A stretch of DNA of 32,000 nt. It comes from Methanococcus maripaludis. GTDB taxonomy: Archaea; AGJL01; Methanococci; Methanococcales; Methanococcaceae. How positions within the stretch are numbered: the first letter of the stretch is position 1; each line of letters begins with the position of its first letter. The notes beneath the pieces are model-generated. The model did not search any database. It saw nothing but the letters and a program-made list of their open reading frames with translations, and was not told where the DNA came from. The stretch covers positions 630,001-662,000 of the forward strand of contig NZ_CP026606.1 of the NCBI RefSeq assembly GCF_002945325.1. Direction: 5' to 3'. Positions 7,219-23,656 of this stretch are shown here, piece after piece. A program made the translations under genes and the position numbers.

Positions 7219-8650
7219 CTATTTTCACATCCATCGATTTATTTTGTTCTTCGGTTTTTTTCAGTAAATCCTTAATATTTCGCATTGCAAGAGGATATAC
7301 ATCTCTCAAGACTTGTTCCATTGCAAGTGCCATAAGTTCTTGAGCTTCAACTCCCATAAGACCGGCTTTTTCATAGTACATACCAGCCCATTTTTTGACT
7401 GATTCGGTTATTTTTCCTAAGTTATCAGATAAAAACACGCATTCCGCAGTCGTTTTATCCATAATACAGGATTTATTTATCCAAATCTCACCGGTTACTT
7501 TGCCTACTTTTCCCATGAATAGAGTTTTTACCCACCTAAATAAATTATAAACCGTTTCTCCTATCGATTTAGATTGTTTAAGTGCTTGTTCAGATTCTTC
7601 AAGGTAATCTATAACTTGATAATCAGTTATAATTTTACATTTTCCTTTATAGTCTTTTAGAGTAGAAACGAAGTTCCATTCATCGACTTCATCATATTCT
7701 ATATGCTTGTAAGTCTTATCGTGCCAAAGCACTCTTTTTTTCTCTCCATCTTGTTCGTATGGAACAGAAATATCGTACACGGTTTTATTTGCAAAATCAA
7801 TACGAATATATGTTAGTAGCTTCTTAGTGTGGACGTAATAAGCCACCCGCGATGCAAGATACGGTATTAGAAAGAGATAGAAGTTATAATAAGACCAGAT
7901 GTATTTAAAATCCCAGGCAAATTTTAACCAGGGAATAGTTAAAGATTTTGAATTAAATACAATAAAATCTTTCCAGGCAGTTGCTTCAAATGGAAAACCA
8001 TACTTATAAAACAAGAATAATAACGCCAATCCCACATTTAAACGAGTAATAGGTAGGATTGATTGTTTAAACCTGATTAATAAGTTTTTTTCGATATATT
8101 TGTTTTTTACATGAAACATGACTAAAACAAACAAGATAATCGAAAGGATTGCACGGTCCCAGCCCATTTTTGAAATGGCCCCTTTTGTTGCATATAACAA
8201 CTCATCGGGTAAATTTCCAGACTGTAAAACATCTTCAATTTGACAGAATTTATTATCATAGAGGAAAATATAATTTATATATCCGTAACTTGTGTATGGA
8301 TTTGTAAAATTATATTTGTGAGTTCCTGTATCTATTCTAACCTCTGAAAACCCCGATGCACCTCTTGTGTATTTGTACTTATATCCATCATAGACAGATA
8401 CCCACTTAGGATTTCCTGAATTAGTTATTTCAAATATCAAGGTCTTAGAAGTCTTATTATAGTAATAAGAATCTATTACCATATCAGAAAATGAAGTTAA
8501 ACTTCCTTTTGTCATATATTCCGCAGTTAACGGATCCGCAGGTTCTATATTTTCCGCATTCACAAAAGGAATGCAGCAAATAATTAATAACAATATTATG
8601 ATTTTATTCGGCATATGTTTCATAAAACAACCTACCATCGTTATTCTCAA
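7142..8650 (-). CDS. Large membrane protein with an extracytoplasmic N-domain, TM helices and a cytoplasmic C-domain (about 490-502 aa)
   Basis: Signal-like KIIILLLIICCIPFVNA. TM helices AILSIILFVLVMF, LNVGLALLFLFYKYGF and NFYLFLIPYLASRVAYYV. The likely start is MKHM or MPNK, not the first Met in the track. Confidence 0.75.
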   Translation of the reverse strand: MRITMVGCFMKHMPNKIIILLLIICCIPFVNAENIEPADPLTAEYMTKGSLTSFSDMVIDSYYYNKTSKTLIFEITNSGNPKWVSVYDGYKYKYTRGASGFSEVRIDTGTHKYNFTNPYTSYGYINYIFLYDNKFCQIEDVLQSGNLPDELLYATKGAISKMGWDRAILSIILFVLVMFHVKNKYIEKNLLIRFKQSILPITRLNVGLALLFLFYKYGFPFEATAWKDFIVFNSKSLTIPWLKFAWDFKYIWSYYNFYLFLIPYLASRVAYYVHTKKLLTYIRIDFANKTVYDISVPYEQDGEKKRVLWHDKTYKHIEYDEVDEWNFVSTLKDYKGKCKIITDYQVIDYLEESEQALKQSKSIGETVYNLFRWVKTLFMGKVGKVTGEIWINKSCIMDKTTAECVFLSDNLGKITESVKKWAGMYYEKAGLMGVEAQELMALAMEQVLRDVYPLAMRNIKDLLKKTEEQNKSMDVKIDDESRDGPGNEETNQSDSGSGESNT

Positions 8651-9463: not shown

Positions 9464-9825
9464 GTTCGAGCAATTTCTTCGTAGTGTCTTTTCGTTTCCT
9501 CAATATGAAGCATTATCAAAGTATGATCCATATCAAAACTAACAACATTAGGTTTTAAATGATATCTGGCATCTAACTCAACCAATACCTTACCTGCTTC
9601 TTTTTCATCCTTAACAATCAATACGACAGTATCAAAATGTTTTGTTTTACTATGACAGCCCATTCCTGCAATTATTTGATCTGGTTTGTAACCTAACTCA
9701 TTAAGAGCAGCAGTTATTTCTTCCAATTCTTCTTCTGAATTGTAAATAATATCCAACATTTTTCTATCTTCGATACCCATCACTTTTTTAAAATCAACTG
9801 CAACAACTTCCATTTTAATCACCAT
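9460..9825 (-). CDS. Hypothetical protein (121 aa)
   Basis: ORF track entry. Abuts the upstream ORF with no gap. Confidence 0.6.
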   Translation of the reverse strand: MVIKMEVVAVDFKKVMGIEDRKMLDIIYNSEEELEEITAALNELGYKPDQIIAGMGCHSKTKHFDTVVLIVKDEKEAGKVLVELDARYHLKPNVVSFDMDHTLIMLHIEETKRHYEEIART

Positions 9826-10067
9826 TTAAACTTCAATTCTAAATCTATCGCTCATTATCATACAATTATGATAAATTACAGTTTTTTCTTCATTATTTGC
9901 GTGAATACAAAGCCATTTACCAGTTTTACTTACAACCGCAAGGACATTTTTGTTAATTTCGCCTTTTTCTTTCAATTGCTTGATAACTGATTGTAACTCT
10001 GCATTTTCTTTAGAAAAATTTCTTTTTCGAGTTTTTTTATTTTTAAAATGTTTTTTAGCCATTTTTC
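9820..10067. repeat. 248-bp direct repeat, copy A
   Basis: Aligns base-for-base with 10666-10913 at an 846-nt offset, with about 11 mismatches by eye. Confidence 0.9.
9826..10062 (-). CDS. Hypothetical basic protein, paralogue A (78 aa)
   Basis: MAKKHFKNKKTRKRNF... Near-identical (2 aa differences) to the ORF at 10672-10908. Confidence 0.65.
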   Translation of the reverse strand: MAKKHFKNKKTRKRNFSKENAELQSVIKQLKEKGEINKNVLAVVSKTGKWLCIHANNEEKTVIYHNCMIMSDRFRIEV

Positions 10068-10486: not shown

Positions 10487-10660
10487 TTAAACGCTCTTTA
10501 TTTCCTCAAAAAGTTCTTTTGAAATCTCAATGAGTTTCACACCTTTTTCCCTAAATTCTTCAACCGTAACATTGAATAGTAAGGGCGGTAAACTGGACTC
10601 GTGAAGACAGAATATTTCAATTTCACCATCATAACGTTTTAATCCTAAATAATATCGCAT
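10487..10660 (-). CDS. Possible small protein (57 aa, below the ORF-track cutoff)
   Basis: Hand translation: MRYYLGLKRYDGEIEIFCLHESSLPPLLFNVTVEEFREKGVKLIEISKELFEEIKSV. It has the same GGTGGTGAAATG junction as the neighbouring genes. Confidence 0.35.
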   Translation of the reverse strand: MRYYLGLKRYDGEIEIFCLHESSLPPLLFNVTVEEFREKGVKLIEISKELFEEIKSV

Positions 10661-10665
10661 TTCAC

Positions 10666-10913
10666 CACCATTTAAACTTCAATTCTAAATCTATCGCCCA
10701 TTATCATACAATTATGATAAATTACGGTTTTTTCTTCATTATTGGCATGAATACAAAGCCATTTACCAGTAGAACTCACAACAGCAAGGACATTTTTGTT
10801 AATTTCGCCTTTTTCTTTCAATTGCTTGATAACTGATTGTAACTCTGCATTTTCTTTAGAAAAATTTCTTTTTCGAGTTTTTTTATTTTTGAAATGTTTT
10901 TTAGCCATTTTTC
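10666..10913. repeat. 248-bp direct repeat, copy B
   Basis: See copy A. Confidence 0.9.
10672..10908 (-). CDS. Hypothetical basic protein, paralogue B (78 aa)
   Basis: Same length and sequence as 9826-10062 except K/S and S/G substitutions. The ATG at 10908 overlaps the stop of the 458-aa ORF. Confidence 0.65.
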   Translation of the reverse strand: MAKKHFKNKKTRKRNFSKENAELQSVIKQLKEKGEINKNVLAVVSSTGKWLCIHANNEEKTVIYHNCMIMGDRFRIEV

Positions 10914-12653: not shown

Positions 12654-13100
12654 TTAAGCCTCCTGAGATTTTTCATTGACAATGGCGTATGCTTTTTCGA
12701 TAACTTCTTCTGAAAGTCCTAAATCTTTTACATAGCCTTTTACAGTGTTTTCAGAACTTCCTTTTCGAATCATGCTTACGATTTCCCAAACTTTACCGTT
12801 TGCAACACATTTATCAAACATACTTCCGAATCCTTCTTCATTCGAATTTTTAGCATTGATTAATTCGTTTAATAATCCAATTGGCAGATTTACAATGTAT
12901 TTTACCTCTCCAGTCTGTTTGTCTTTGAAGTCTTTTACCTGGTCGAGGAATAGTGTTACTTTTCCTTCCTTGTCTTCGTCGTAAACGTAATTGTTACCTT
13001 CTTTTTTCTGACCTTTTTCAACGGTTAACTGGACGTTTCCTTTGAAAATTTTTCCGTAAAATGTAGCTTTATCTTCTGTGATTTTAGCCATTTTTATCAA
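12654..13100 (-). CDS. Hypothetical protein (145-148 aa)
   Basis: ORF track entry, Lys/Glu-rich. The likely start is MAKITEDK at 13091. Confidence 0.65.
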   Translation of the reverse strand: MIKMAKITEDKATFYGKIFKGNVQLTVEKGQKKEGNNYVYDEDKEGKVTLFLDQVKDFKDKQTGEVKYIVNLPIGLLNELINAKNSNEEGFGSMFDKCVANGKVWEIVSMIRKGSSENTVKGYVKDLGLSEEVIEKAYAIVNEKSQEA

Positions 13101-13359
13101 CCTTTTTTACTTTGTAGTCTCCGTTTTCGAAGTAGACTTGAATTTTATCCCCTTCTTTGAGACTGTTTGATTTTGTTTTTAGTTCGTAGACTCTTTCTGA
13201 GAAATCATCTTTTACATAGAACTGATTTTTTAAAATGTAATTGTTCGATATTTTGTTAAATTTTGAATCGTAAATTGTTACATTGCAGTTTTCTTGCTGC
13301 CGTCTCATGACTACAGTATATTCTTTTATTTTCGAGGTCTTTGGAAGCTCAGGATACAT
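13084..13359 (-). CDS. Hypothetical protein (91 aa)
   Basis: ORF track entry. Abuts the upstream gene with no gap. Confidence 0.6.
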   Translation of the reverse strand: MYPELPKTSKIKEYTVVMRRQQENCNVTIYDSKFNKISNNYILKNQFYVKDDFSERVYELKTKSNSLKEGDKIQVYFENGDYKVKKVDKNG

Positions 13360-13485
13360 TTAATCATCCTTGTTTTCACCTTGAATTTTGATTATAACCT
13401 TCTTACCTATCCAGCTCTTAGGTACTGTTACGTGTCCGGTGTTTCCGGAGGGTTTTACCTGTTTTATGATTGTTTTTTCTTTCAT
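13360..13485 (-). CDS. AbrB/SpoVT-like (DUF2080-like) small DNA-binding protein, first gene of the leftward train
   Basis: Motif GNTGHVTVPKSWIGKKVIIKI resembles the swapped-hairpin AbrB/MazE signature. ATG at 13485 has GAGG 7 nt upstream. The track's longer version (to 13569) needs a TTG start lying inside an inverted repeat. Confidence 0.6.
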   Translation of the reverse strand: MKEKTIIKQVKPSGNTGHVTVPKSWIGKKVIIKIQGENKDD

Positions 13486-13529
13486 TATCGCCTCTTTTTT
13501 ATTTGAAAATTTTATGAGGGAGGGTATTT

Positions 13530-13598
13530 TTGTTACCAAATAATTAACCGTTTCCAGTATTGGTAACAATAATAACTGTGGATATCCATCTATATAAA
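13530..13598. promoter_or_regulatory. Control region: a 10-bp-arm inverted repeat plus the palindrome TGGATATCCA abutting a TATA-like box
   Basis: TTGTTACCAA (13530-13539) and TTGGTAACAA (13560-13569) are exact reverse complements, 20 nt apart. TGGATATCCAT is at 13579-13589. TATATAAA is at 13591-13598. The region lies between divergent regulator genes. Confidence 0.5.
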
Positions 13599-13705
13599 TG
13601 TTTCCAAAAATAGTAACGGGCAGTATATTGATAATATTATAATTTATTCAAATGGGAACATAAAATACAACATTGAATAATTATGGAACTTAAAAAGGGG
13701 AAAAA

Positions 13706-14071
13706 ATGTTCCTGAAAATTTTATCCAAATCCAATGCAAAAGAAATTTTAATGCTTTTGAACGAATATGGCGAGTTATATTTCGGGCAAATTCATAAAGA
13801 ATTAGATAAACCAAAAAGTAATTTAAGCAGAGTTATATCTGAATTACAGGAAGAAGGTCTTGTAAACAAAAGAACCGAAGAAACAGACGAAGACGGAAGA
13901 ATACCTAAGAATTATTATAGTTTAACCAATCTCGGTAAGATTGCTATTGAAATATATCAAAAAGAAGACAAAATGTTAAAAGAAAAAGAGTCTGGAAACG
14001 TAAATATCAATGTTGAAAATAATCATGGAATTATCGCAAACAATATTCAAAATTTGAACGTAAAAAAGTAA
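13706..14071 (+). CDS. Winged-helix (ArsR/PadR-like) transcriptional regulator (121 aa)
   Basis: KEILMLLNEYGELYFGQIHKELDKPKSNLSRVISELQEEGLVNKR... followed by YYSLTNLGK, giving a helix-turn-helix plus wing pattern. Confidence 0.8.
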   Translation: MFLKILSKSNAKEILMLLNEYGELYFGQIHKELDKPKSNLSRVISELQEEGLVNKRTEETDEDGRIPKNYYSLTNLGKIAIEIYQKEDKMLKEKESGNVNINVENNHGIIANNIQNLNVKK

Positions 14072-14186
14072 TAAGGGTTACTATTAATTATAGATTTTAT
14101 TTTTGAGAGTTTAAAGGGTTATTCAATAATTATATTTAAGTTATTTATGTTTATTGATTGAGGGAAATTTTATTAAAGGTGGGGAA

Positions 14187-15512
14187 ATGGGAAAACTTCC
14201 AGATAATGAAATGTCTAAAATTATTAACAAAATTTTAGATTTAACTTATATTGATGAAAATAAGCTCAAAATTAGAAAAAATAAAAGCCTTTTTGAATTT
14301 GAAACTTATTTATCATTATTAAATTGTGAATTACTCAAAGATGAAAATATTTCTAAAAAAATAACGGATTTAAAATACTGTACGATGATTTCAAGTGATA
14401 TTAACAATTTTGAACTTATTCTTGATGTTTTAACTGAACTAAAAACTAAAAACTTGAATAATTATAATGAATTCAAAAATATTCTTGATTTAAAAATTAA
14501 ATCGTTAAAAAGTGAGTTTAAGCAGCATACCCTGTATGAAATGTACATTCCACTAAATTTAAAAACTGAATTCACCATTGAAAAAATAAAATGTAGAAAT
14601 TTTTGTGCAGAAATTGTGAAACATAGAACGATAAAAGGAATTATAAATCAGCCAAAATTAAACGAAAGTATCAAAAAAGCCCATGAAATAGACTCACAAT
14701 GTGAAATAAATGTGAATTTCGAAGAAAGTGAATTTTTAAAAATAACTGTTAATAGTCAAACAGATGCCCATGCATGCCTAACTGCACGTAAAATTCAAAA
14801 TTTATTCATTGGCATGGTTGCATATGTTATTACCAAAAATTCAAGCTACAGAACACTTAAAGGCCCAACCGAAGCCATATTCCCAATATATCCGCAAATA
14901 ATGATAGAAACAATAGGTACCCAATTTGTTACTGTATTTGTGGGAGACATAACCCGTAAAAGAATACCAAAAGACTGTATTATACCTATTGAAAAGTTTT
15001 ATGAAACAGAATTAAATTATTTAATCCAATTCTATAATTCAAAACATCCTGATATTCAAAAAAAACTAGAAGAAATATTTACAAACTATGCTTGCGGGGT
15101 TTATCAAGATAAAAAGACGGATTCATTTTTTAATTTATGGGTGGCATTGGAACGAGCAACAATGGTGTCCGATATAGGAAAACATGACATGATCCCTAAA
15201 ATTTCAAAAGCATTATTTAATGAAAGAAATCCATTATATGCCCACGTTATTGAAAATCTGTATAATGTTAGAAACAATTTTATTCATGAAGGCGGATCTA
15301 TTTCCCAATACGATAGAAATGCATTAAAATACTGTGTTGATAATCTGATTGAATTTTTAATAAATGAGTTAAATTCGTATTCCCTTAACGAAATAAGAAC
15401 AATTTATGAATATTTAACCAAAAATGGTGATAATTTAGAAAACATTCAAAAGACCATTGAACATGTCATAGAATTAAAGAATAATTGGAAAGGGGAAATT
15501 TCAGAAAAATAA
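14187..15512 (+). CDS. HEPN-domain protein (442 aa from ATG 14187), possibly ApeA-like; candidate RNase or abortive-infection effector
   Basis: C-terminal NLYNVRNNFIHEGG is a canonical R-N-x3-H (Rx4-6H) HEPN motif in a helical context. AGGTGGGG RBS precedes ATG 14187. The N-terminal roughly 330 aa are unrecognised. Confidence 0.75.
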   Translation: MGKLPDNEMSKIINKILDLTYIDENKLKIRKNKSLFEFETYLSLLNCELLKDENISKKITDLKYCTMISSDINNFELILDVLTELKTKNLNNYNEFKNILDLKIKSLKSEFKQHTLYEMYIPLNLKTEFTIEKIKCRNFCAEIVKHRTIKGIINQPKLNESIKKAHEIDSQCEINVNFEESEFLKITVNSQTDAHACLTARKIQNLFIGMVAYVITKNSSYRTLKGPTEAIFPIYPQIMIETIGTQFVTVFVGDITRKRIPKDCIIPIEKFYETELNYLIQFYNSKHPDIQKKLEEIFTNYACGVYQDKKTDSFFNLWVALERATMVSDIGKHDMIPKISKALFNERNPLYAHVIENLYNVRNNFIHEGGSISQYDRNALKYCVDNLIEFLINELNSYSLNEIRTIYEYLTKNGDNLENIQKTIEHVIELKNNWKGEISEK

Positions 15513-15550
15513 CCCCATTTTTAAATTTTAATAACCATTCCCATTAAATT

Positions 15551-15586
15551 TTAAATTACTCTTTTTAAATTGATTGAAAAAAGAAA
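15551..15586. repeat. 36-nt direct repeat, copy 1; putative bidirectional oligo-T terminator
   Basis: ttaaattactctttttaaattgattgaaaaaagaaa matches 17628-17663 at 35 of 36 positions. It sits between convergent stop codons (15512 and 15607). Confidence 0.8.
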
Positions 15587-15606
15587 AGAGAATATAATTT
15601 TAAAAA

Positions 15607-15888
15607 TTATAATCCTAACGCTGATCTAGGCAACACTCGGAGCTTATTAGTTTCACTTTTAACAGAATTTACTACATTTTTTTCAAGAATGTCTGTTAAT
15701 GTTTTAAGTTCTTTTTCTGACAACGTGCATATATCTGACTGGCTATTTTCTGAAAGATAAAACTTGACATTACACTTATTTTCATTATTTAATTTACCAA
15801 TAAGAACTTTTGAAACTTTTTCCAATTCAATATATTTAGTATCATGTTCATTTTCAATTTTAAATAATTTCATTTTTTTCACCGTCAT
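15607..15888 (-). CDS. Hypothetical protein (93 aa)
   Basis: ORF track entry. Its ATG directly follows the stop of a 33-aa upstream ORF (TAAATG). Confidence 0.5.
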   Translation of the reverse strand: MTVKKMKLFKIENEHDTKYIELEKVSKVLIGKLNNENKCNVKFYLSENSQSDICTLSEKELKTLTDILEKNVVNSVKSETNKLRVLPRSALGL

Positions 15889-15990
15889 TTACTTCTTTTT
15901 ATTATATTTCACGATAGTTTCTTTGTTTGTTCGTGTAACCGTTCCAATCTTTTTATTTTTTCTAATTATCAGAGTCGTTTTTTTCGTCAT
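15889..15990 (-). CDS. Possible 33-aa highly basic peptide
   Basis: Hand translation: MTKKTTLIIRKNKKIGTVTRTNKETIVKYNKKK. AGGAGGT lies 6 nt upstream of the ATG. Its stop abuts the next ATG. Confidence 0.3.
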   Translation of the reverse strand: MTKKTTLIIRKNKKIGTVTRTNKETIVKYNKKK

Positions 15991-16560
15991 TAAATAACCT
16001 CCTTTATTTTAAGTATAAGCTTCGCTAACTTGTTAAACAACAAAATTAGGCGTAATTAGTCCCCAATATAATGAAAACTAATGAGTAATGTATAAATACA
16101 AATTTTCAAAAAGAGATATACGGGATCGATCAAAATCCGCATATCAGAATATGTCTTTTTACAATGGCATCACCTCTGATGTAAATACCTTTTTTAGATA
16201 ATTTTATAGGTATTTGATTTTCTGATAAGATAAATATTATGTTAATAATTTATATACTTGTCTTTAGTGCCCTATATATACTAAACTAAACAAGACGATA
16301 GAGCTTTTTTCAATAACTGCTAAATTGCATATGAATAATGCTTTTTGCAGTAATCTACTTTTAACCCCAATCTAATTAAAAAAAGAGTTATTTAAATATT
16401 ATCGTAAAATGTAAAGTAGATTAAAAATTCAAAAAATAGCCTTCTTTTTTAATTTAAAGCATATTACCCTCATTAAATTCAATTAAAATAATTATTCTTC
16501 GATAAAATATTAAACTTGCCATTCTGGTTTTAACATTAAATTTACAACATAATTATAAAA

Positions 16561-16596
16561 TTATATATACGATTTTTAATAAATGGATATCCATTT
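16561..16596 (+). promoter_or_regulatory. TATA-like box (TTATATATA) plus a perfect 16-bp palindrome AAATGGATATCCATTT upstream of the nuclease-like gene
   Basis: TATA-like box at 16561-16569. Palindrome at 16581-16596, at about the expected transcription start site. GAGGGGA RBS, then ATG at 16619. Confidence 0.5.
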
Positions 16597-16618
16597 GATT
16601 TAAAAAAGAGGGGAGTAT

Positions 16619-17167
16619 ATGTTAGGAATTATCAAATCAGCAGTTTCAAAACTTATGGATGCATTTACTAAAAAATCAAGATCTGAAAAAATCGATGAAA
16701 TTAGAGAAGAAATTAAAAAAGATCCAACATCATTTGAAAAGGGAACAGCTTTTGAATTATGTTGTTTGGACATATTTTCAGAAAAGGACTTTGACTTACT
16801 TGAAATGACACATAATCCGGATTCTGCAAATGGCAGATTTGTTAAAAGTGATTTAAACCCGGATTTACAGTTTAAAAATAAAAAAACAGATAGTGTTTTT
16901 AGTGTTGAATGCAAATACAGAAGCAGTTTATATAAAGGGGCTTTTAGCTGGGCTAAAAATAAAGCTCAAGCTGACAGATACAGAGAATATGAAAAAGAAA
17001 ATGAAATTTCCGTATTTGTTGCAATGGGGTTAGGTGGAACTCCTGAAAAACCAGAACAAATTTTCTTAATGCCTTTAAAAGAAATAAAATATAATTCACT
17101 CTACCCTAGTGTTTTAAACGATTATGAAATAAAAGAAGCTAAAGATGTATTTAAAATATTAAACTAA
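16619..17167 (+). CDS. PD-(D/E)xK (restriction-endonuclease-fold) nuclease-like protein (182 aa)
   Basis: GTAFELCCLDIF helix, then NPDLQF ... SVFSVECKY, giving the D ... E-x-K arrangement typical of Mrr/restriction-endonuclease cores. Confidence 0.65.
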   Translation: MLGIIKSAVSKLMDAFTKKSRSEKIDEIREEIKKDPTSFEKGTAFELCCLDIFSEKDFDLLEMTHNPDSANGRFVKSDLNPDLQFKNKKTDSVFSVECKYRSSLYKGAFSWAKNKAQADRYREYEKENEISVFVAMGLGGTPEKPEQIFLMPLKEIKYNSLYPSVLNDYEIKEAKDVFKILN

Positions 17168-17217
17168 TCCAAATAATTAATTATTTTTTTAATTTTTACA
17201 GTTATCTGGTGGATAAA

Positions 17218-17619
17218 ATGGACGGCCCACATAAAATGCTCATTTGTATAGTTGTAATTCTCTCAGCATTCAGTCCTTTTATAGAAGATGCAATTTACAA
17301 CTATTCTCATGACGTTAATATAGAAGAAATCAGGTTTTCATACCATCCAAATAGTGAATATTTTAATGGAACAAGCGGTGAAATGGATGAAAACGGAACT
17401 TTAAGGTTAATTGTTACACCTACCGATAAATTTAGAAATTTAACGTATGATGAACAGGTTAAATGGATGAATCGGGCAGGAAATGCATTAAGAGACGATG
17501 CAATTTTAAAAAATACAATTGAAAAGGATACTCCAGTATTTGTAACATTTGAAAGCGAGTGCTATCAAGACGGAAAAGACTGTAAAATAGATTATTTTGG
17601 AAATTGGAGTTTTGAATAA
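17218..17619 (+). CDS. Small membrane-anchored/secreted protein (133 aa)
   Basis: GGTGG lies 5 nt before ATG 17218. N-terminal hydrophobic segment MLICIVVILSAFSPFI. Lies 50 nt downstream of the nuclease-like gene. Confidence 0.55.
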   Translation: MDGPHKMLICIVVILSAFSPFIEDAIYNYSHDVNIEEIRFSYHPNSEYFNGTSGEMDENGTLRLIVTPTDKFRNLTYDEQVKWMNRAGNALRDDAILKNTIEKDTPVFVTFESECYQDGKDCKIDYFGNWSFE

Positions 17620-17627
17620 ATTTTGAT

Positions 17628-17663
17628 TTAAATTACTTTTTTTAAATTGATTGAAAAAAGAAA
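17628..17663. repeat. 36-nt direct repeat, copy 2; putative bidirectional terminator
   Basis: ttaaattactttttttaaattgattgaaaaaagaaa. It sits between convergent stops (17619 and 17698). Weaker similarity continues about 25 nt further in both copies. Confidence 0.8.
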
Positions 17664-17697
17664 TATTATTCAATTCTAAAAATTAAAATTAGGTAAA

Positions 17698-18720
17698 TTA
17701 AACTCTTACCTTAGAGTGAGTTTCATATTTATTTCCCGAATGTTTAGATTCCAGATAATCATCATCCAGTATTTTAATAACTGTAGCATAGTTTTTGCTA
17801 TTAATTATTAAATTATCATTCTCATCAAATTCAATTTCATCTAATTTAAATTCCGATTTTGTATCAGATATTGAATTATGATCCCAAGTTTTGTAACTTT
17901 TAGTATTCAATACCGTAGCAAATTTTTTAGTAAGATCTTTATTACGTTTGGATAAACTTACCAGTACTTCAAGATTATCTTTATCGATAATTTTTTGCTC
18001 AACCAATTTATCTTTTTTATCATCAATTTCTTTTTTGTATCCTTCATGGAAATCAAAAAATAATTCAATACCATTTTTGTTAAATACATACATAATTTCA
18101 GAGATATCTTCAGAAGCCATCTCTTTACCCTTATAAATCATTCCATCAAATTTATCTTCAAGTGCAAAAATACTATCTTCGATTTTATCGAATTTACCAT
18201 TATTTCTATTAAATACCATGTTTAAAGTGCCTTTTCCAAGCAATTTAAGAGGAGAATGTTTTTTAATAAATATCAAATTTTTAGATATTTCTTTTTTGTT
18301 ATCAAAGATATCAATGGTTACAATATATCCCCAAATTTTTTTTATGTTTTTTAATGCATTGCTATTTAAAAACTCGGGATCCCCGTAAGTTTTATCATAA
18401 ATATCTTCAAAATGGGGAATATCTTCTGCAGACATGACTTCAATAACTTTTTTATCATATTTCGCCATTGGAGAATATTTTGGGTAAAAATATTCATCAC
18501 CACATCGAATTCCCACTTCAAGTTGGGCAATTTTCAATAATTCCTGCTCTATTGCGTGATTTGAATTAAATTCTGTTCTCCAAATTTTATGTGTTATCAA
18601 TTCTTTCTTTTTAGTTCGTTCTACAAAATTCAAAGTTATATTACCCAAATTAAGATTTTCGTCTTTTAACATCTTGTATATATCAGGCATTTTTAATATA
18701 GTAGCGACATTTATTTCCAT
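17698..18720 (-). CDS. Cytoplasmic 340-aa protein, second gene of a two-gene operon (KwaB/DUF4868-like by architecture only)
   Basis: ORF track entry. Starts 3 nt after the stop of the 4-TM gene. Lys/Glu/Asp-rich. No catalytic motif recognised. Confidence 0.7.
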   Translation of the reverse strand: MEINVATILKMPDIYKMLKDENLNLGNITLNFVERTKKKELITHKIWRTEFNSNHAIEQELLKIAQLEVGIRCGDEYFYPKYSPMAKYDKKVIEVMSAEDIPHFEDIYDKTYGDPEFLNSNALKNIKKIWGYIVTIDIFDNKKEISKNLIFIKKHSPLKLLGKGTLNMVFNRNNGKFDKIEDSIFALEDKFDGMIYKGKEMASEDISEIMYVFNKNGIELFFDFHEGYKKEIDDKKDKLVEQKIIDKDNLEVLVSLSKRNKDLTKKFATVLNTKSYKTWDHNSISDTKSEFKLDEIEFDENDNLIINSKNYATVIKILDDDYLESKHSGNKYETHSKVRV

Positions 18721-18723
18721 AAT

Positions 18724-19401
18724 CTACACTTCTTTAAAGATATTATTTCCATACATATGTTTTAATTGTAATTTATCATCGATTTTCAGATCTTTTTTAG
18801 TGATTATCAAAGCATCTGAATAAGTTTTAGGATTTGGTGACATATTGGCTCCTTTTTTAATGGATGCACGATACATTTTGTATCCAAAAGACGTTAAAAC
18901 AGGATTTATAAACACTAAATCAGTAGAAATTGCTACCGAACGCATAATTCCTAAAAATAATATAAAAGCTAAAATATTTGTGAATTTACATAAATCAAAT
19001 CCCATAAATGCAATCATATATGGCACAAAATAATCCAGCGCATCTTTTGTACGATTTTCAAAATCTACCACCACATATTCTTTTGCAGAAGTAGTTCTTG
19101 TACAATACCAAAATAAAGCCCAAAATATCAATGTAGGAGTAAAAAATACAATAATAAAAACTATTCCAATAGTTAAAGGAATTGAAACATTTCCCATACC
19201 CACAGTTTGTGGAATTGTGGAAGTACAGTTTATAAACGGCATTTCTATACAAGAGCACGTTTCTGTAAAATAAATTGCGGAAAATATCAGAAATAATGGC
19301 AAATAAGAAAACATGAATAAACCGGTATTTATGGTCCAGCCTATACTCCAGCCTATAAGTTTATCCCAACGATTTTTTTGATTTTTCCCCTCAGTCCCCA
19401 T
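18724..19401 (-). CDS. Four-TM membrane protein (225 aa), first gene of the two-gene operon (KwaA-like by architecture only)
   Basis: Hydrophobic helices LFMFSYLPLFLIFSAIYF, IPLTIGIVFIIVFFTPTLIFWALFWY, YFVPYMIAFMGF and ILAFILFLGIMRSVAI, then a soluble roughly 50-aa tail. A TATA-like catatatat lies about 45 nt upstream. Confidence 0.7.
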   Translation of the reverse strand: MGTEGKNQKNRWDKLIGWSIGWTINTGLFMFSYLPLFLIFSAIYFTETCSCIEMPFINCTSTIPQTVGMGNVSIPLTIGIVFIIVFFTPTLIFWALFWYCTRTTSAKEYVVVDFENRTKDALDYFVPYMIAFMGFDLCKFTNILAFILFLGIMRSVAISTDLVFINPVLTSFGYKMYRASIKKGANMSPNPKTYSDALIITKKDLKIDDKLQLKHMYGNNIFKEV

Positions 19402-19521
19402 GAAAACACCTAAATTGTACCGAAGAGGTCTTTATCTCTTCATATATATGATAGTTTTCATGACGTAATATTTTAAGAATTAGTTGTACGATTGTAAAAA
19501 TAATTTTAAGATAGCATTAAT

Positions 19522-20451
19522 TTATCGAGGACCGATAAATCTATCCCCATTATAGTGTATCATGTGATCAGGATTTTCTGAAATCCAAACTTCAGTATCC
19601 CATGCAATATCTGCAACATATTTTTTGAAAGTAGCTTTATCCCTAAAGCAGCTCACATATATTTTTCCACACTTACAGTCTTCAAGCATTTCTTCAAGTT
19701 CATAGTACCGTTTATCTGAAACTGGGCCATGAGAAGTAACTGCTTCAATTAAATAAATCCAGTTATTCTTTTCATCATACAAAACAACATCTGGAAGCTT
19801 ATCATGTTTAGTCATTGGAATTCCAAGCTTTTCAAGTTCTTCATCCAATTTATAAAGGTTTTTATGTGCGGTATCCCCAACATAAAGAACTTTTGAACCA
19901 CCTGCAAATCTAGGTCCAAATTCTTCAATAATTTCTTTTTGTAATTCATTATGTTCTCCAGAAGAAAATTCAAGTTCCGTATCATCAACTTTAACTGAAA
20001 TTTTATGAATTTCCCTAATTCCCTGATATTTTTCAGAAAGTGAAGTTTTATTCTCTAAAAACCATTCAACAGACTTTTCAAAATCATCAGTTTCGTATGT
20101 TTTTAAAACTTCTAAAAATTCAGGAGTTAAGGAATAAACTGTTTTACCACTGTTTGTAGGTCTTTTTGGATCATCTCGATTCCTTTCAACAATTCCAGCA
20201 TGTTCAAACTGGTGTATTGTCTGCCGCCTTATTGTTTCCCTGCTATTTTCAGCATAAGTATATCCATAATTTTCAGAAATAAACAATAAAATATCATGAA
20301 TTCTAACTAAATTATCTTCTGAATCTTTCCAATCACTGTTTTCTTGGATATTTGCAAGTGCTAAAAGAGTATATGCACTTCTATTATTTTGCTGCTTCAC
20401 TGGAAGCTCAAATTTCTTTAAAATAGTTAAAGCTTCGTCTAACTTTCCCAT
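19522..20451 (-). CDS. Type II restriction endonuclease, BsuBI/PstI-like (309 aa from ATG 20451; alternative TTG at 20466)
   Basis: Lies immediately downstream of the methyltransferase. PD...E core LPDVVLYDEKNNWIYLIEAVTSHGPV. N-terminal wHTH-like region. The size matches R.PstI-class enzymes. Confidence 0.6.
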   Translation of the reverse strand: MGKLDEALTILKKFELPVKQQNNRSAYTLLALANIQENSDWKDSEDNLVRIHDILLFISENYGYTYAENSRETIRRQTIHQFEHAGIVERNRDDPKRPTNSGKTVYSLTPEFLEVLKTYETDDFEKSVEWFLENKTSLSEKYQGIREIHKISVKVDDTELEFSSGEHNELQKEIIEEFGPRFAGGSKVLYVGDTAHKNLYKLDEELEKLGIPMTKHDKLPDVVLYDEKNNWIYLIEAVTSHGPVSDKRYYELEEMLEDCKCGKIYVSCFRDKATFKKYVADIAWDTEVWISENPDHMIHYNGDRFIGPR

Positions 20452-20468
20452 ACTACCCTTCCACAAAA

Positions 20469-21977
20469 TTAGATATTAAATATATTATTGACAATATCAT
20501 TACATTTATCAACACTTAAATCATTTTCTTTTAGAATTAAGTCTCCAATTCTGACAATGAGTTCTTTTTCGGGAAGAGGCATTGAATTTACTTCTGTAGC
20601 ATTTACCTGAGTAGATCCATTTACAATTCTATAATATTTATCTAAGATATCACAATTAAAGAGAGCATAGAGACCAAATAATTCGTTTAATTCCATATTA
20701 CCTGATTCTTTCACAATATAATTAAGATGATTTTCAAATCCAATCTGTGGATAATTAAATTCTTTTGAAGAATAAATTGCAGCTTGAAGCCTTCTTTTCT
20801 CTTCTTTTGAAGTAAACCGTTTCAATAATAAATAATCCTTATTTTTCAAAAGTAACTTTTTAGATTCAGAATTATTCAAAATATACGGGGGTTTTCCGTC
20901 CTTTGTAACTGGAAATCTTATTAATCCGTCATTAAAATTATGTAACCACAAAAGAGGAACAGTTTCATTCGAGGGTTCATTTTTTAAATATTCTAATGAT
21001 CGAAAATCGACTACAGGCCCGGTTTTTAACTTATATCCTAGTTTAACTAAATTATACTTCCAGTTTGACATTAAATTCATGATTTTTACGTCTTCTTCGT
21101 TTGTAGGTAACAATATGAATTTATTTTCATTTTTCGTTATTACTGTATCATAAGGCATGTAAATTTGAAAAATATTTTTGGATAAATCAGAATCTGTACT
21201 TTCTGAAATACACATCATATCTTCATTTAATCTTGATTTTACAGCTTTTAAAATAATTGTTTCCTGCAATACCTGATCGTTTCCAAACACGTTTTTCCTT
21301 GAAACAAACAAATGTATTCGAGAAATATTTACATTTTCAAGGAACCATGTTCTAAATTTTTTAAAATAAAGACCCGATGTAAAGCTTCTTGGATTAATAA
21401 ATATGAACTCTCCATTTTCCTTTAACAATTTTAAAGCCATTGCCATGAATAAAAAATAAATATTGGGCTGACCGTGCACAATAGAATTCATAGCTACAGC
21501 TTCTTCGCAAGACTTGCTTATTTTTTTGTAAGGTGGATTAGAGATTACAAGATCGTAACGCCCAACAGAGTCTGAATTCCAGTTATCTACATTCAATGTT
21601 ACAAAATTGCCATGTATAATTTTATATGTGAATTTTATGGGCGAATTTTCTAATTTATGTTTAATATATTCCATTGATTTAGTTAAAATGGGTAAAACAT
21701 CAGAATCTACTTCATAAAGATCAATATGGAGTCTTTTTAAATTTTTATGGGTTTTAAATTTATCAACAAGTGCTGTCGCTAAAATACCGGTGCCTGAACC
21801 ACAATCTAAAATATTTAATTCTTCAAAATTTTCATAGTCGCCGGATAAACTAGCCATAAAGTCGGCAACAGCTGCAGGTGTAAAAAATTGGCCTATTTTC
21901 TTCCTATCTTTCTTAGACTTCTTTTCCAAATATTTATTCGTGTATTCTTGGACTTCATTTACAAGTGATTCCTGCAT
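20469..21977 (-). CDS. N6-adenine DNA methyltransferase, gamma class (M.PstI/Eco57I-like, 502 aa)
   Basis: SAM motif ILDCGSGTGIL precedes the catalytic motif DLVISNPPYKK. FFTP near the N-terminus. Confidence 0.9.
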   Translation of the reverse strand: MQESLVNEVQEYTNKYLEKKSKKDRKKIGQFFTPAAVADFMASLSGDYENFEELNILDCGSGTGILATALVDKFKTHKNLKRLHIDLYEVDSDVLPILTKSMEYIKHKLENSPIKFTYKIIHGNFVTLNVDNWNSDSVGRYDLVISNPPYKKISKSCEEAVAMNSIVHGQPNIYFLFMAMALKLLKENGEFIFINPRSFTSGLYFKKFRTWFLENVNISRIHLFVSRKNVFGNDQVLQETIILKAVKSRLNEDMMCISESTDSDLSKNIFQIYMPYDTVITKNENKFILLPTNEEDVKIMNLMSNWKYNLVKLGYKLKTGPVVDFRSLEYLKNEPSNETVPLLWLHNFNDGLIRFPVTKDGKPPYILNNSESKKLLLKNKDYLLLKRFTSKEEKRRLQAAIYSSKEFNYPQIGFENHLNYIVKESGNMELNELFGLYALFNCDILDKYYRIVNGSTQVNATEVNSMPLPEKELIVRIGDLILKENDLSVDKCNDIVNNIFNI

Positions 21978-21998
21978 AATTAGACCCCATTTTAAAAA

Positions 21999-22886
21999 TC
22001 ATTTCTTATTATTCATAACTCGTAAATACTCTTTTTTCCTTGATTCCTTGTTCGAGTGAACGTATCCCGAAGTAGTATTCAAGTTTGAATGACCCATTAT
22101 TTTTGAAAGAACAATCAAGTTCATTTCATCTTCACAGGCTAAAGTTCCAAAGGTATGCCTGAAAACGTGTGGAGTAACATCAAAAGGAATTTTATCTTTT
22201 GTAACTTCCTTTAAATAGTCTCTAAATTTATCTATTGCGTAATTTGTAACCTTTTTACCATTCTTAGTTACAAAAAAGCAGTCTGTTTTTAAATTTAAAT
22301 TCTCTCTGTATTCGATATAATTTTTAAGATATCCTAAAAGTTCGTTATCGATAAATACATATCTATCTTTTCCGCCTTTTCCATCCCGAATGTAAATTGA
22401 GCGGTCTTCTAAATCTACATCATTTAAAAGTATGTTTTGAAATTCAGAAATCCTAACACCCGTTTTTAAAAGAAATAGTGTGTAAACATAATAATCATAG
22501 TCCATTACTTTTGCTAAAACTGTTTGAACTTGTTTTTCACTTAAATTCAATCTCTCCTTTTTTTCAAATTTGAGAGTTTTTACAAAGGTTTTCACTGGAT
22601 TTTTAAATAAATACTGATGTTCTACCGCCCATTCATAAAATCGATTAACATCATTTAATCTTTTGATTTTAGTATTCTTATTTACAGGCCTTCCATCTTC
22701 GGCTTTGTTATATCCATTATAGAAGTTTATTGCATCTTCTATTGTGATATTTTCCCAGGTTTTATTTTCGTCAAAATATCTTGTAAATGCCTTTAAACCG
22801 GATTTATAGTATTTTACAGTATTTTGACTGTGACCTGAATGAAATTTTAAGAATTTTTCAACAAGTTTTTCTGAAGATTCATCCAT
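21999..22886 (-). CDS. Tyrosine recombinase/integrase (XerC/D-phage integrase family, 295 aa)
   Basis: Catalytic residues in order: GVRISE (R), GKGGKDR (K), HVFRHT (HxxR), GHSNL (H), SGYVH (Y). Confidence 0.9.
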   Translation of the reverse strand: MDESSEKLVEKFLKFHSGHSQNTVKYYKSGLKAFTRYFDENKTWENITIEDAINFYNGYNKAEDGRPVNKNTKIKRLNDVNRFYEWAVEHQYLFKNPVKTFVKTLKFEKKERLNLSEKQVQTVLAKVMDYDYYVYTLFLLKTGVRISEFQNILLNDVDLEDRSIYIRDGKGGKDRYVFIDNELLGYLKNYIEYRENLNLKTDCFFVTKNGKKVTNYAIDKFRDYLKEVTKDKIPFDVTPHVFRHTFGTLACEDEMNLIVLSKIMGHSNLNTTSGYVHSNKESRKKEYLRVMNNKK

Positions 22887-22894
22887 GGTATCCC

Positions 22895-23443
22895 TTAATT
22901 TCTAGTAATTATTTCGTATTCTTCACCCATTGGAAGCATTACTTCCCTAAGTCTAAAATATACTTTACCGTCTTCAACTCTTTGCTCTACAGTGGCCCCA
23001 AATTCTCTATGATTTGCTAAAATATATTTGAAAAGGTTAATTTTACGATCATCAGTTGCATAATTTAGTACAACAAGAATTTCATCCCAAGCTGTCCATA
23101 CATCGTCATCTTTACTTCTTAAATAATCCTTAATTTTTACGTACATATCTTGAATTTCAGTATCAGTATAAATTGATACTAAATAATCAGATAGATCTTG
23201 TAAAGCAGTTGTAACTTTATCGTTTGATTCTTTTGTTGCAAATTGTGCATTTTCTAAAAGTGAGATAATTTTATCTAATTTTGAATCGGTACTTTCGTTA
23301 CCTTTTTCATAAATTCTATCTACCATGTTCATGCAAAATTTTGCATATGATCCAACACTTGAAAAACCCTTTTCTTTTGCCATCTCTTGATACTTTTTAC
23401 GTTCACTATCATCAGTACAATATACTTGCAAAAGTACAGCCAA
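22895..23443 (-). CDS. Hypothetical protein with a possible N-terminal ribbon-helix-helix domain (182 aa); candidate regulator or excision factor
   Basis: LLQVYCTDDSERKKYQEMAKEKGFSSVGSYAKFCMNMV has a strand-helix-helix pattern. TTG start with GGGGTGG upstream. Lies 8 nt upstream of the integrase gene. Confidence 0.5.
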   Translation of the reverse strand: MAVLLQVYCTDDSERKKYQEMAKEKGFSSVGSYAKFCMNMVDRIYEKGNESTDSKLDKIISLLENAQFATKESNDKVTTALQDLSDYLVSIYTDTEIQDMYVKIKDYLRSKDDDVWTAWDEILVVLNYATDDRKINLFKYILANHREFGATVEQRVEDGKVYFRLREVMLPMGEEYEIITRN

Positions 23444-23528: not shown

Positions 23529-23616
23529 ACTCGATGATGATTGTCATCCCTGCTGACTTTAATTTGTAGTATTAGTTGCAAATTAAAGAAATGATGAATA
23601 CAGGGTTACTGAGAGT
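23529..23616 (+). ncRNA. C/D-box sRNA-like RNA with an internal hairpin (double K-turn candidate)
   Basis: C box ATGATGA at 23534-23540. 12-nt spacer. D' CTGA at 23553-23556. 10-bp stem CTTTAATTTG/CAAATTAAAG (23557-66 and 23579-88). C' ATGATGA at 23591-97. 11-nt spacer. D CTGA at 23609-12. Terminal ACTC/GAGT pairing. TATA-like ttatatat at 23503-10. T-run after 23620. Confidence 0.5.
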
Positions 23617-23656
23617 TGCTTTATTTTCCGATATATTAAAAAATTTAAAAAGTTAA

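Follow-up and report, generated by a model that had tools for sequence, protein, structure and literature searches.

Methanococcus maripaludis JJ has a cassette-swapping anti-invader island as cargo of an integrated mobile element

What does an integrated element keep between its control genes and its integrase, and is this cargo directed against other invading DNA? The question is raised by positions 13706–21977 of a 32,000-nt stretch of Methanococcus maripaludis DNA (hereafter the window; contig NZ_CP026606.1, positions 630,001 to 662,000), whose strain and locus tags were assigned to M. maripaludis JJ by exact protein look-up. An initial annotation had read the region as a defence island of five modules in a cargo slot, and all the open reading frames (ORFs) that it listed are present (Table 1). 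Its central idea is borne out by a hypervariable slot and by known defence systems (Kiwa and restriction-modification, R-M). The slot is indeed an island of anti-invader genes that are swapped as cassettes, carried by a mobile element; two of the five proposed modules are unproven as defence. The well-grounded modules are three: a PstI-type R-M system, Kiwa and an ApeA-like HEPN protein. We consider it quite probable that the 13.7–22.0 kb region forms the variable slot in which an integrated mobile element carries its cargo, flanked by a divergent AbrB/winged-helix (wHTH) control region and by a Xer-like integrase, and that recombination, both at gene boundaries and at a junction termed D8, has re-assorted these three systems in it. 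Defence islands on mobile elements are already known as a kind; this is a new instance, in a model methanogen.

Table 1. Features of the cargo slot and its edges (window coordinates; a dot marks a feature without strand)
Feature	Position	Strand	Basis and remarks
AbrB/SpoVT-like DUF2080 gene	13360..13569	-	PF09853 E=2.5e-8; left arm of divergent control region; outside 13706-21977
Winged-helix regulator, ArsR/MarR-like	13706..14071	+	Pfam HTH_5 E=7e-9
ApeA-like HEPN protein, putative abortive-infection RNase	14154-15512	+	452-aa ORF with TTG opening; probable ATG at 14187 gives 441 aa (14187..15512)
Junction D8, copy a	15518..15595	.	core 15550-15586; convergent 3' ends of HEPN gene and 93-aa gene
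Bicistronic 33-aa/93-aa pair	15607..15990	-	33-aa gene 15889-15990, 93-aa gene 15607-15888; stop/start abut; GGAGGT ribosome-binding site
Conserved upstream (promoter) region of 182-aa gene	16446..16618	+	87-90% identical elsewhere
182-aa PD-(D/E)xK nuclease, Hjc/RecU-like predicted fold	16619..17167	+	invariant D82, E97-C-K99
Putative membrane-anchored protein	17209-17619	+	GTG start, 136 aa (17218..17619 gives 133 aa); N-terminal anchor, three N-X-S/T sequons
Junction D8, copy b	17627..17663	.	convergent 3' ends of 136-aa gene and kwaB
Predicted Kiwa operon	17698..19401	-	kwaA then kwaB, 3-nt gap; HMM matches
kwaB	17698-18720	-	PF16162 68.4 bits (cutoff 26.3)
kwaA	18724-19401	-	PADLOC E=5e-26; NCBIfam 71.8 bits, below cutoff 100
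PstI/BsuBI-type Type II R-M	19522..21977	-	PF06616 E=5e-61; PF17728 E=2e-49
PstI/BsuBI endonuclease	19522-20466	-	PADLOC REase_II E=2e-109; 309 aa from ATG (19522-20451)
N6-adenine methylase	20469-21977	-	PADLOC MTase_II E=8.5e-123; NPPY motif visible
Xer-like tyrosine integrase	21999-22886	-	phrog_1 E=7e-50; right edge of cargo slot
Conserved 182-aa gene upstream of integrase	22895-23443	-	right edge of cargo slot

The slot between the wHTH gene and the integrase was compared in five related elements (L001, L014, L017, L022 and L026) and at chromosomal loci L004–L010, a comparison proposed in the initial annotation. The slot differs in each element. Homology breaks at gene boundaries and at a junction sequence of 37–65 nt that is itself conserved, and the contents are in turn Kiwa with R-M, an OLD-family nuclease, nuclease fusions, HEPN proteins, and genes of the TPR or DUF4352 type. 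L017 retains the block from the integrase through R-M and Kiwa to the 136-aa gene (86.5% nt) as well as wHTH-Rep (89% nt), while positions 14190–17171 are replaced by a 491-aa gene, a TPR gene and three small genes. L026 retains the wHTH (100% aa) and the HEPN gene (99.8% aa) with a Rep that is only 43% identical, so the wHTH-HEPN block lies nearly unchanged (97% nt) in an element with a different Rep; an OLD-family ATPase-TOPRIM stands there in place of Kiwa and R-M. Still other contents were found in L001 and L022. The homologous chromosomal locus matches at both ends, between which it has either HEPN_LA2681 or a gene of the OLD family. GC content falls to 24–29% at 13.5–19 kb, against 31–38% in the element core, and dN/dS was 0.01–0.39 for every gene testable against the related elements, which indicates that all comparable genes are under purifying selection.

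The two copies of D8 share a 37-nt direct repeat with 97% identity, and D8 also follows different genes in L001, L017, L026 and the chromosomal loci L004–L010. Homology breaks off within copy a at 15571, 15580 and 15585, and oligo-T runs are present on both strands. D8 may be no more than a common terminator. Other breakpoints lie at stop codons and in the promoter of the 182-aa gene; this promoter region is 87–90% identical upstream of the chromosomal p186 genes (L004, L010), the 376-aa fusion of L026 and the DUF4352 gene of L001. The mosaic pattern is directly visible in these alignments, and recombination at D8 and at the borders of genes would have built the island and shuffled its contents, with related elements and the homologous chromosomal hotspot as the likely exchange partners.

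At the left edge, the AbrB-like gene stands opposite the wHTH gene in all five related elements as well. The wHTH protein is 99–100% identical in L017 and L026 and 34–44% in L014 and L022, where the downstream genes differ; its dN/dS is 0.01. Its position is constant whatever gene follows, and no wHTH partner was found beside the distant HEPN homologues. On these observations the wHTH gene is the conserved control gene of the element and not a dedicated HEPN partner; from the proposed wHTH plus HEPN module, the HEPN identity stands, by its RNxxxH motif, and the partnership falls. At the right edge, the integrase and the adjoining upstream gene are 93–94% identical in L022 and L026, and homology to L026 ends at 21996, the integrase stop codon.

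The proposal of a separate promoter and terminator for every module was not confirmed. Oligo-T runs follow most 3' ends, but an archaeal TATA consensus (<=1 mismatch; background 0.4 matches per 150 nt) was found upstream of only four genes, namely the AbrB-like gene, the 33-aa gene, the 182-aa nuclease gene (TATATATA at -57 of the 16619 start) and the integrase-adjacent 182-aa gene. The R-M system starts 21 nt past the stop codon of the integrase gene and lacks a TATA-like box, and therefore it is probably co-transcribed with that gene.

Defence models, including those of PADLOC, matched Kiwa and the Type II R-M system; in total, four of ten ORFs matched defence HMMs directly. The R-M system resembles PstI/BsuBI in having both endonuclease domains and a gamma-class N6-adenine methylase with NPPY, and differs in its place directly downstream of an element integrase and adjoining Kiwa. 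Its endonuclease is evidently MMJJ_06980, judging from the run of consecutive locus tags and accession numbers. For strain JJ, both a PstI-like activity and the phenotype of a deletion have been published, which validates this module experimentally: deletion of MMJJ_06980 is viable and raises transformation tenfold, a phenotype reported for plasmid DNA only (PMC10133366). The publications consulted make no mention of its mobile-element context. In line with the activity demonstrated for this strain, the system cuts unmethylated incoming DNA. The window shows no avoidance of CTGCAG, with 5 sites where 2.0 are expected.

The pair described initially as a 4-TM plus a 340-aa protein corresponds, by its PF16162, PADLOC and NCBIfam matches, to KwaA and KwaB of Kiwa, a known defence system. 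Pfam PF28043 is on record for a protein identical to KwaA, the NCBI name for AVB76110 is KwaB-like, and the two genes have dN/dS of 0.19 and 0.21. As in E. coli Kiwa, the genes form a two-gene operon in the order kwaA-kwaB, KwaA covers nearly the full length of KwaA models, and KwaB has the DUF4868/KwaB domain. Unlike the E. coli system, the JJ pair is archaeal and very divergent: KwaA is under the NCBIfam equivalog cutoff, and phmmer gave no match between KwaB and solved KwaB structures. The RecBCD/Gam interplay of E. coli Kiwa has no obvious archaeal counterpart. By analogy with E. coli, the membrane sensor KwaA would license the DNA-binding KwaB to block replication of entering DNA.

The 452-aa ORF encodes a HEPN protein of a small family that is distantly like the tRNA-cleaving defence protein ApeA. 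A search of 1.84 billion proteins gave 69 representative homologues. In a 27-member alignment R362, H367, W318 and E322 are invariant, and the motif R362-N-N-F-I-H367 conforms to RNxxxH, which is invariant across the family. The C-terminus matches a haloarchaeal plasmid gene annotated as "HEPN domain-containing protein", and the AF2 model (pLDDT 87) has an all-helical C-terminal domain. The family profile had three matches below E=0.001 in the PDB, all of them ApeA chains (E=3e-4 and 6e-4), and the only other listed match had E=0.25. Because no Pfam HEPN_Apea or PADLOC model matched and Foldseek gave no similar solved structure, the ApeA link rests on this profile match at E=3e-4. The segments of Ec2ApeA that align, without change of order, are the Mid domain, helix H1 of HEPN (LNLWIAIESL) and the helix with the catalytic RNxxxH. 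ApeA is a single-protein HEPN anticodon nuclease (bioRxiv 10.64898/2026.01.26.701840). The JJ system likewise consists of one protein, in which HEPN forms the C-terminal domain and the N-terminal and middle parts are non-HEPN; it falls short of ApeA by about 150 residues and does not have the HEPN insertions. It would act as a single-protein effector, probably by abortive infection, cleaving tRNA or other RNA once triggered. Two distant homologues sit between hsdS and hsdR in type I R-M operons. This placement is like that of prrC, an anticodon nuclease gene that lies within the EcoprrI type Ic R-M locus. PrrC is also named as a HEPN nuclease in the literature; the 452-aa protein, unlike PrrC, has no ABC-ATPase N-terminal domain and is not beside a type I system in the window.

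The 182-aa protein is predicted to have an Hjc-like PD-(D/E)xK fold. Its AF2 model (pLDDT 78.5) matched Hjc resolvases in Foldseek (E=1e-5, TM 0.67), and in the family alignment D82 and E97-x-K99 are invariant and E46 nearly so. It shares with Hjc/RecU the fold and the catalytic E...PD...ExK motif, and differs by an extra N-terminal helical region, by the lack of a Pfam Hjc match at E<=0.1, and by fusion of its type of domain to variable N-termini on mobile elements (L012, L022 and L026). Chromosomal homologues in Methanocaldococcus and in M. maripaludis have gene neighbours in common, being placed beside MJ0093 and MCR_C or beside a Na/Ca exchanger and Fer2/CCG. They look vertically inherited, and therefore a defence role of the 182-aa protein is uncertain and a housekeeping or recombination role is a live alternative.

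This nuclease had been paired with the small membrane protein encoded next to it. The nuclease motif and fold were recovered, as was one hydrophobic segment in the 136-aa protein (residues 7–30), but the pairing was not: the 136-aa gene is shared by three elements (89–90% identical in L017 and L026) with different neighbours on both sides, and is conserved independently of the nuclease and not as its dedicated partner. It has a dN/dS of 0.32–0.39 and no family match in Pfam, PADLOC, NCBIfam or PHROGs. The basic/neutral 33-aa/93-aa pair is annotated as MMJJ_06930 and MMJJ_06920, and the 33-aa protein has K/R at 12 of 33 residues. As a gene pair it is supported by the abutting ORFs and the ribosome-binding site. 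No match was found in Pfam, PADLOC, NCBIfam, PHROGs or PDB, and the pair is absent from all related elements; the evidence for a defence role is positional, as an OLD-family or HEPN_LA2681 gene takes this place in the homologous chromosomal locus of other strains.

These properties bear on a somewhat doubtful alternative, in which the cargo is mixed and only R-M and Kiwa serve defence. The 182-aa protein would then derive from a conserved Methanococcales recombination/repair nuclease that the element has captured for its own use, such as the resolution of junctions; the 136-aa protein would serve the element at the surface or in exclusion, and the 33/93-aa genes would be regulatory or spurious. 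The Hjc/RecU-like fold, the chromosomal homologues beside the same housekeeping genes in two genera, the persistence of the 136-aa gene whatever its neighbours and the lack of homology for the small pair would all agree with this. However, the nuclease domain is joined to at least three different N-terminal regions and forms part of the slot cargo in four elements, which is typical of effector domains. The missing Pfam Hjc match also speaks against a resolvase, as does its chromosomal neighbour, which is HEPN_LA2681 in some cases and an OLD-family nuclease in others.

R-M systems and HEPN toxins are also established addiction modules, and the R-M, the HEPN RNase and the nuclease could mainly stabilise the element by post-segregational killing, with protection against invaders as a side effect. 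We regard this as improbable. The modules do lie on a mobile element beside its integrase, and the wHTH-HEPN block has moved into an element with a different Rep; but no cognate antitoxin, such as an MNT partner, stands beside the HEPN gene, Kiwa has no known addiction role, the distant HEPN homologues are found within operons of type I R-M rather than on elements, and deletion of the endonuclease in JJ is viable and raises DNA uptake (PMC10133366). That the region is ordinary syntenic host sequence resembling defence genes by chance has a negligible probability. Nothing was found in its favour, and against it stand the strong HMM matches, the flanking integrase, the GC trough and a gene content that differs in every related element; the comparison with L017, L022 and L026 had already refuted it. 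The region is clearly not syntenic housekeeping sequence devoid of defence neighbours, the outcome that the initial annotation had set against its own proposal.

The anti-invader island in a cargo slot has counterparts in bacteria, where integrated mobile elements carry defence hotspots; examples are those of P2/P4 prophages and satellites and the slots for cargo in integrative elements. As in these hotspots, elements that are alike in other respects hold differing anti-invader systems in a fixed slot between conserved element genes, with breakpoints that coincide with gene boundaries. Unlike them, the JJ island has a methanogenic archaeon as its host and an element core with no detectable relatives in phage/plasmid collections, IMG/VR or GTDB representative genomes, and part of its slot is homologous to a chromosomal hotspot.

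An archaeal integrated element carries a genuine defence island in its cargo slot, at about 13.7–22.0 kb, between the AbrB-like/wHTH control region and the Xer-like integrase. The initial annotation had read this slot as a defence island on a mobile element, and this held: its restriction-modification (R-M) module is validated, its Kiwa system is a confident assignment and its 452-aa protein is a probable ApeA relative. Bacterial defence hotspots on mobile elements are a well-known pattern, to which this island conforms, and no description of it was found in the literature searched. To its left, the minus strand encodes a 458-aa Rep-like protein, a small AAA-type ATPase, several membrane proteins and a 752-aa PEGA-domain surface protein; the AbrB-like DUF2080 gene is the last of this series and faces the wHTH gene. 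To its right lie the Xer-like integrase gene (phrog_1, E=7e-50), a conserved 182-aa gene and then a radical-SAM/TRAM gene. The GC content was 24–29% at 13.5–19 kb versus 31–38% in the element core.

Every ORF of the initial annotation was present at the position assigned to it. Exact-sequence look-up assigned the window to Methanococcus maripaludis type strain JJ and identified the 93-aa ORF as MMJJ_06920, the 33-aa ORF as MMJJ_06930 and the neighbouring proteins as AVB76104 to AVB76111. The 452-aa, 136-aa, 93-aa and 33-aa proteins and, apart from a weak DUF234 match, the 182-aa nuclease matched no family in Pfam, PADLOC, NCBIfam or PHROGs. Each module had appeared, in the initial annotation, to have a promoter and terminator of its own. 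In a simple archaeal search with a background of 0.4 matches per 150 nt, TATA-like consensus boxes were found only 5' of the AbrB-like, 33-aa, 182-aa nuclease and integrase-adjacent genes, and oligo-T runs were found 3' of most genes.

The R-M module is experimentally validated through a deletion in the literature. JJ was reported to have PstI-like activity, and deletion of MMJJ_06980 raised transformation by an integrative plasmid tenfold (PMC10133366); that study did not present the gene as mobile-element cargo. We placed MMJJ_06980 in the window by consecutive locus tags and accessions. The 314-aa endonuclease carries the BsuBI_PstI N-terminal HTH (PF17728, E=1.8e-49) and C-terminal catalytic domains (PF06616, E=5e-61) and adjoins a 502-aa N6-adenine methylase (PADLOC MTase_II, E=8.5e-123, with Pfam Eco57I and N6_Mtase matches) containing an SNPPYKK motif, in agreement with the Type II R-M first proposed. 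The well-known PstI barrier to transformation is mobile-element cargo, and its neighbours there, Kiwa and the HEPN nuclease, may be additional, unrecognised barriers to genetic manipulation. Genetics is tractable in JJ, a model methanogen, and every module is open to direct deletion or mutation. The methylase gene starts 21 nt past the integrase stop codon, and the simplest reading of this spacing is that the R-M and integrase genes share a transcript. Avoidance of CTGCAG was uninformative about R-M specificity, with 5 sites in the window against 2.0 expected.

The pair of a 4-TM and a 340-aa protein, suspected to be a defence module, could be confidently assigned to Kiwa on its profile matches and adjacency. 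The 340-aa protein matched KwaB in Pfam (PF16162, residues 127–325, E=1e-18, 68.4 bits where the cutoff is 26.3) and in PADLOC (E=6e-5). The 225-aa protein matched PADLOC KwaA (E=5e-26, profile positions 11–189 of 196), scored 71.8 bits with NCBIfam, under the cutoff of 100, and is identical to a protein with PF28043 on record; its hydrophobic blocks (residues 26–52, 66–101 and 130–165) are those of a membrane protein, for which about four TM helices were expected. The kwaA gene lies upstream of kwaB in the same orientation with a 3-nt gap, and the pair is retained in the related element L017 of another M. maripaludis genome. The protective mechanism of Kiwa has been described (PMC11785009), and the literature searched gave no account of Kiwa in methanogens; KwaB had no match in IMG/VR. 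The KwaB proteins of the window and L017 share 66% of their amino acids (dS 1.05, dN/dS 0.21) and their neighbours are far closer (KwaA 85%, endonuclease 95%, 136-aa protein 89%), which suggests an allele replacement of KwaB inside an otherwise conserved block.

The 452-aa protein had been called a HEPN protein, and its family supports this. A word-indexed search returned one close relative, and HMMER, run in full over 1.84 billion representatives, gave 69 homologues, mostly of 415–445 aa and 20–30% identical. In a 27-member alignment W318, E322, R362 and H367 were invariant and N363 nearly so; these residues form an RNxxxH HEPN motif, with W318 and E322 in a conserved acidic helix just before it. 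Searched at E≤0.01, none of the 27 members fell into a HEPN family of Pfam, nor did the 452-aa protein match the curated ApeA/HEPN_Apea models of Pfam and PADLOC. Against the PDB, the family profile found only three chains under E=0.001, all of them ApeA (E=3e-4 and 6e-4), the next match being an unrelated dehydrogenase (E=0.25), and the aligned segments follow the order of Ec2ApeA, namely Mid domain, HEPN helix H1 and catalytic helix. ApeA, an abortive-infection system made up of one protein, cuts the anticodon loops of tRNA (bioRxiv 10.64898/2026.01.26.701840). The C-terminus of the 452-aa protein also matched a gene on a haloarchaeal plasmid whose product is annotated as HEPN domain-containing. 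Moreover, two distant homologues (loci L028 and L031) sit in type I R-M operons, with hsdS on one side and hsdR on the other. The gene of the anticodon nuclease PrrC is placed between hsdS and hsdR, a layout which these homologues share. Taken together, the catalytic motif, the ApeA-only PDB matches, the haloarchaeal HEPN match and the hsdS/hsdR context indicate that the 452-aa protein is a probable distant, compact ApeA-like HEPN effector outside the curated ApeA family. With the archaeal Kiwa, it offers comparison material for the mechanisms of the bacterial systems. In L031 a HicB-like antitoxin gene is also located between hsdS and hsdR.

The wHTH and HEPN genes had been taken as one module, which our comparison did not bear out. 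Pfam places the 121-aa protein among the ArsR/MarR winged helices, and its gene stays opposite the AbrB-like gene whichever gene comes next; no wHTH gene adjoins the distant HEPN homologues. On these grounds the wHTH protein is the regulator of the element. Matches to Csa3/CARF models spanned only the generic HTH part and so do not argue for CRISPR signalling.

The slot was compared among five related elements, the initial annotation having proposed cassette swapping there as a check; the slot genes did differ, with homology breakpoints at gene boundaries and junctions, which bears out the swapping. L017 shares the integrase, R-M, Kiwa and 136-aa genes at 86.5% nt and the wHTH-to-Rep block at 89% nt, and between these carries an unrelated 491-aa gene, a 243-aa TPR protein gene and three small genes. 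The 491-aa gene, which stands in place of the HEPN gene, was rejected as a HEPN relative (hhalign probability 0.6%). L026/L027, apparently strain C6, as the 91-aa and 136-aa counterparts bear C6 UniRef names, has the wHTH (100%) and HEPN (99.8% identical) proteins, followed by a 308-aa gene, a 376-aa nuclease fusion, the 136-aa homologue, an OLD-family nuclease, two unknown genes and the integrase; its Rep is just 43% identical. L001 continues from the wHTH and HEPN genes into a DUF4352 protein gene and then another wHTH gene, and the L022/L023 slot contains only a 437-aa nuclease fusion. L014 (the C5 element) contains a wHTH and the nuclease, together with a protein that the PADLOC model HEPN_IX matched. 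Every gene that could be compared was under purifying selection (dN/dS 0.01–0.39). The near-identity of the AbrB-wHTH-HEPN block in L026, whose element also has a helicase, beside such a divergent Rep indicates that control-plus-cargo blocks move between elements with different replication modules.

Coordinates of features in the window and in related loci
Feature	Window	Other loci	Remark
Homology breakpoints	14190, 15571–15585, 16446–16605, 17171, 17622, 21996		
AbrB-wHTH-HEPN block	13089–15580	L026 7777–10268	97% identical
D8 in the window	15518–15595, 17627–17663		core TTTAAATTACTCTTTTTAAATTGATTGAAA
D8 in elements		L001 2394–2444, L017 7548–7619, L026 7777–7840, L012 7689–7710, L014 8948–8982 and 9370–9401	
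D8 in chromosomal loci		L004–L009 about 8102–8170, L010 45–125	other M. maripaludis
37-nt direct repeat	15550–15586, 17627–17663		97% identical
Region homologous at both ends to chromosome	15518–17167	L004 8102–10561, L010 45–2702	87–88% nt
ORF-free stretch	15991–16445		about 450 nt
182-aa nuclease gene	16619–17167 (+)		
HEPN_IX-matching gene		L014 6633–7187	convergent with nuclease homologue, E=7.5e-7
kwaB	17698–18720	L017 3437–4462	
MMJJ_06980	19522–20451		
hsdS-HEPN-hsdR		L028 431–4227, L031 197–4755	
C/D-box matches	23530–23633		sR55 and sR35
254-nt direct duplication	9814–10067, 10660–10913		95% identical

Inter-element breakpoints coincide with D8, a conserved intergenic junction sequence of 37–65 nt of which the 37-nt direct repeat lies at two convergent gene junctions of the window. 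A version of about 65 nt lies 3' of the HEPN gene (L001, L026), of the 491-aa gene (L017) and of chromosomal HEPN_LA2681 and OLD-family genes. D8 is dispersed over the chromosome and elements alike, where it lies 3' of unrelated genes, most of them of defence type. As it has oligo-T runs on both strands, it may be a bidirectional terminator and no more; it may also be a recombination patch, or both, the recombination role being one that we infer. Part of the slot is homologous at its two ends to a chromosomal locus, with D8 on one side and a promoter and 182-aa gene on the other, and the minus-strand gene between them is an OLD-family gene, an HEPN_LA2681 gene or, in the window, the 33/93-aa pair. 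This is a concrete case of defence-cassette exchange between an archaeal element and a chromosome.

The 182-aa protein was correctly called a PD-(D/E)xK nuclease, given its E...PD...(D/E)xK motif and a restriction-endonuclease-like fold, its model matching Hjc and RecU. D82 and E97-C-K99 were invariant and E46 nearly invariant in thirteen homologues, and Foldseek of the model (pLDDT 78.5) returned the Hjc structures 2eo0 and 2wcw (E=1e-5 to 2e-5, target TM 0.67), followed by RecU; Pfam Hjc was not matched at E≤0.1, only DUF234 appearing (E=0.028). Its biology is ambiguous. On elements, the nuclease domain stands alone here and in C5, where the HEPN_IX match makes another HEPN gene and nuclease pairing, and is joined to varied N-termini of 200–290 residues in L012, L022 and L026. 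Other M. maripaludis strains have a chromosomal copy, 88% identical, whose divergent partner is an HEPN_LA2681 protein or an OLD-family ATPase-TOPRIM. The Methanocaldococcus homologue has the housekeeping neighbours MJ0093, MCR_C, a Na/Ca exchanger and Fer2/CCG, which also border the M. maripaludis chromosomal copies; these shared flanks point to vertical inheritance of the chromosomal family, which would count against a defence role. The nuclease had also been grouped with the small membrane protein. The 136-aa protein, with an N-terminal anchor and three N-X-S/T sequons, is about 90% conserved in three elements despite different neighbours on either side, and T-runs separate its gene from the nuclease gene, so that this grouping was not upheld.

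For the 33/93-aa pair, the evidence is positional. The pair has a ribosome-binding site, and the stop of one ORF abuts the start of the other; it matched no toxin or antitoxin in Pfam, PADLOC, NCBIfam, PHROGs or PDB. The adjacent ORF-free stretch (629 nt to the start of the 182-aa gene) had no Rfam match, and tblastn with cargo proteins of the other elements detected no pseudogene remnants in the 629 nt.

The linked readings can be joined into one proposal, which as a whole we consider unlikely. In it, the 452-aa protein would be the founder of a 'mini-ApeA' lineage, compact HEPN nucleases of the anticodon type, members of which would elsewhere be built into type I R-M operons as PrrC is. D8-bounded slots would form a homology-guided exchange system shuttling defence cassettes between the Methanococcus chromosome and integrated elements, and the unannotated 33/93-aa pair would be a new small defence or toxin module.

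With respect to the origin of the element, a 2019 survey reported that Methanococcales members of the pT26-2 family use Xer-type integrases and have variable regions that are mostly ORFans, defence genes going unmentioned. A 2025 paper reported that JJ carries a pT26-2-like element, and the present element may or may not be that one. Megablast of 24 kb against phage genomes gave zero matches, and tblastn of the core proteins (ATPase, 502-aa protein and Rep) gave none among PLSDB plasmids. No confirmed relative of Rep and the 91-aa protein was found in IMG/VR and GTDB genomes, a metagenome scan with them yielding three weak partial matches and nothing more. The tRNA scan of the whole window detected none, so there is no tRNA att site within it. 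At 13–24 kb, Rfam gave nothing but two sub-threshold C/D-box matches (for sR55, 24 bits where the gathering score is 35), which fall between genes at the element's right border, the place in which one would look for an att site. In the replication region of the element, the 254-nt direct duplication has produced two copies of a 78/81-aa gene.
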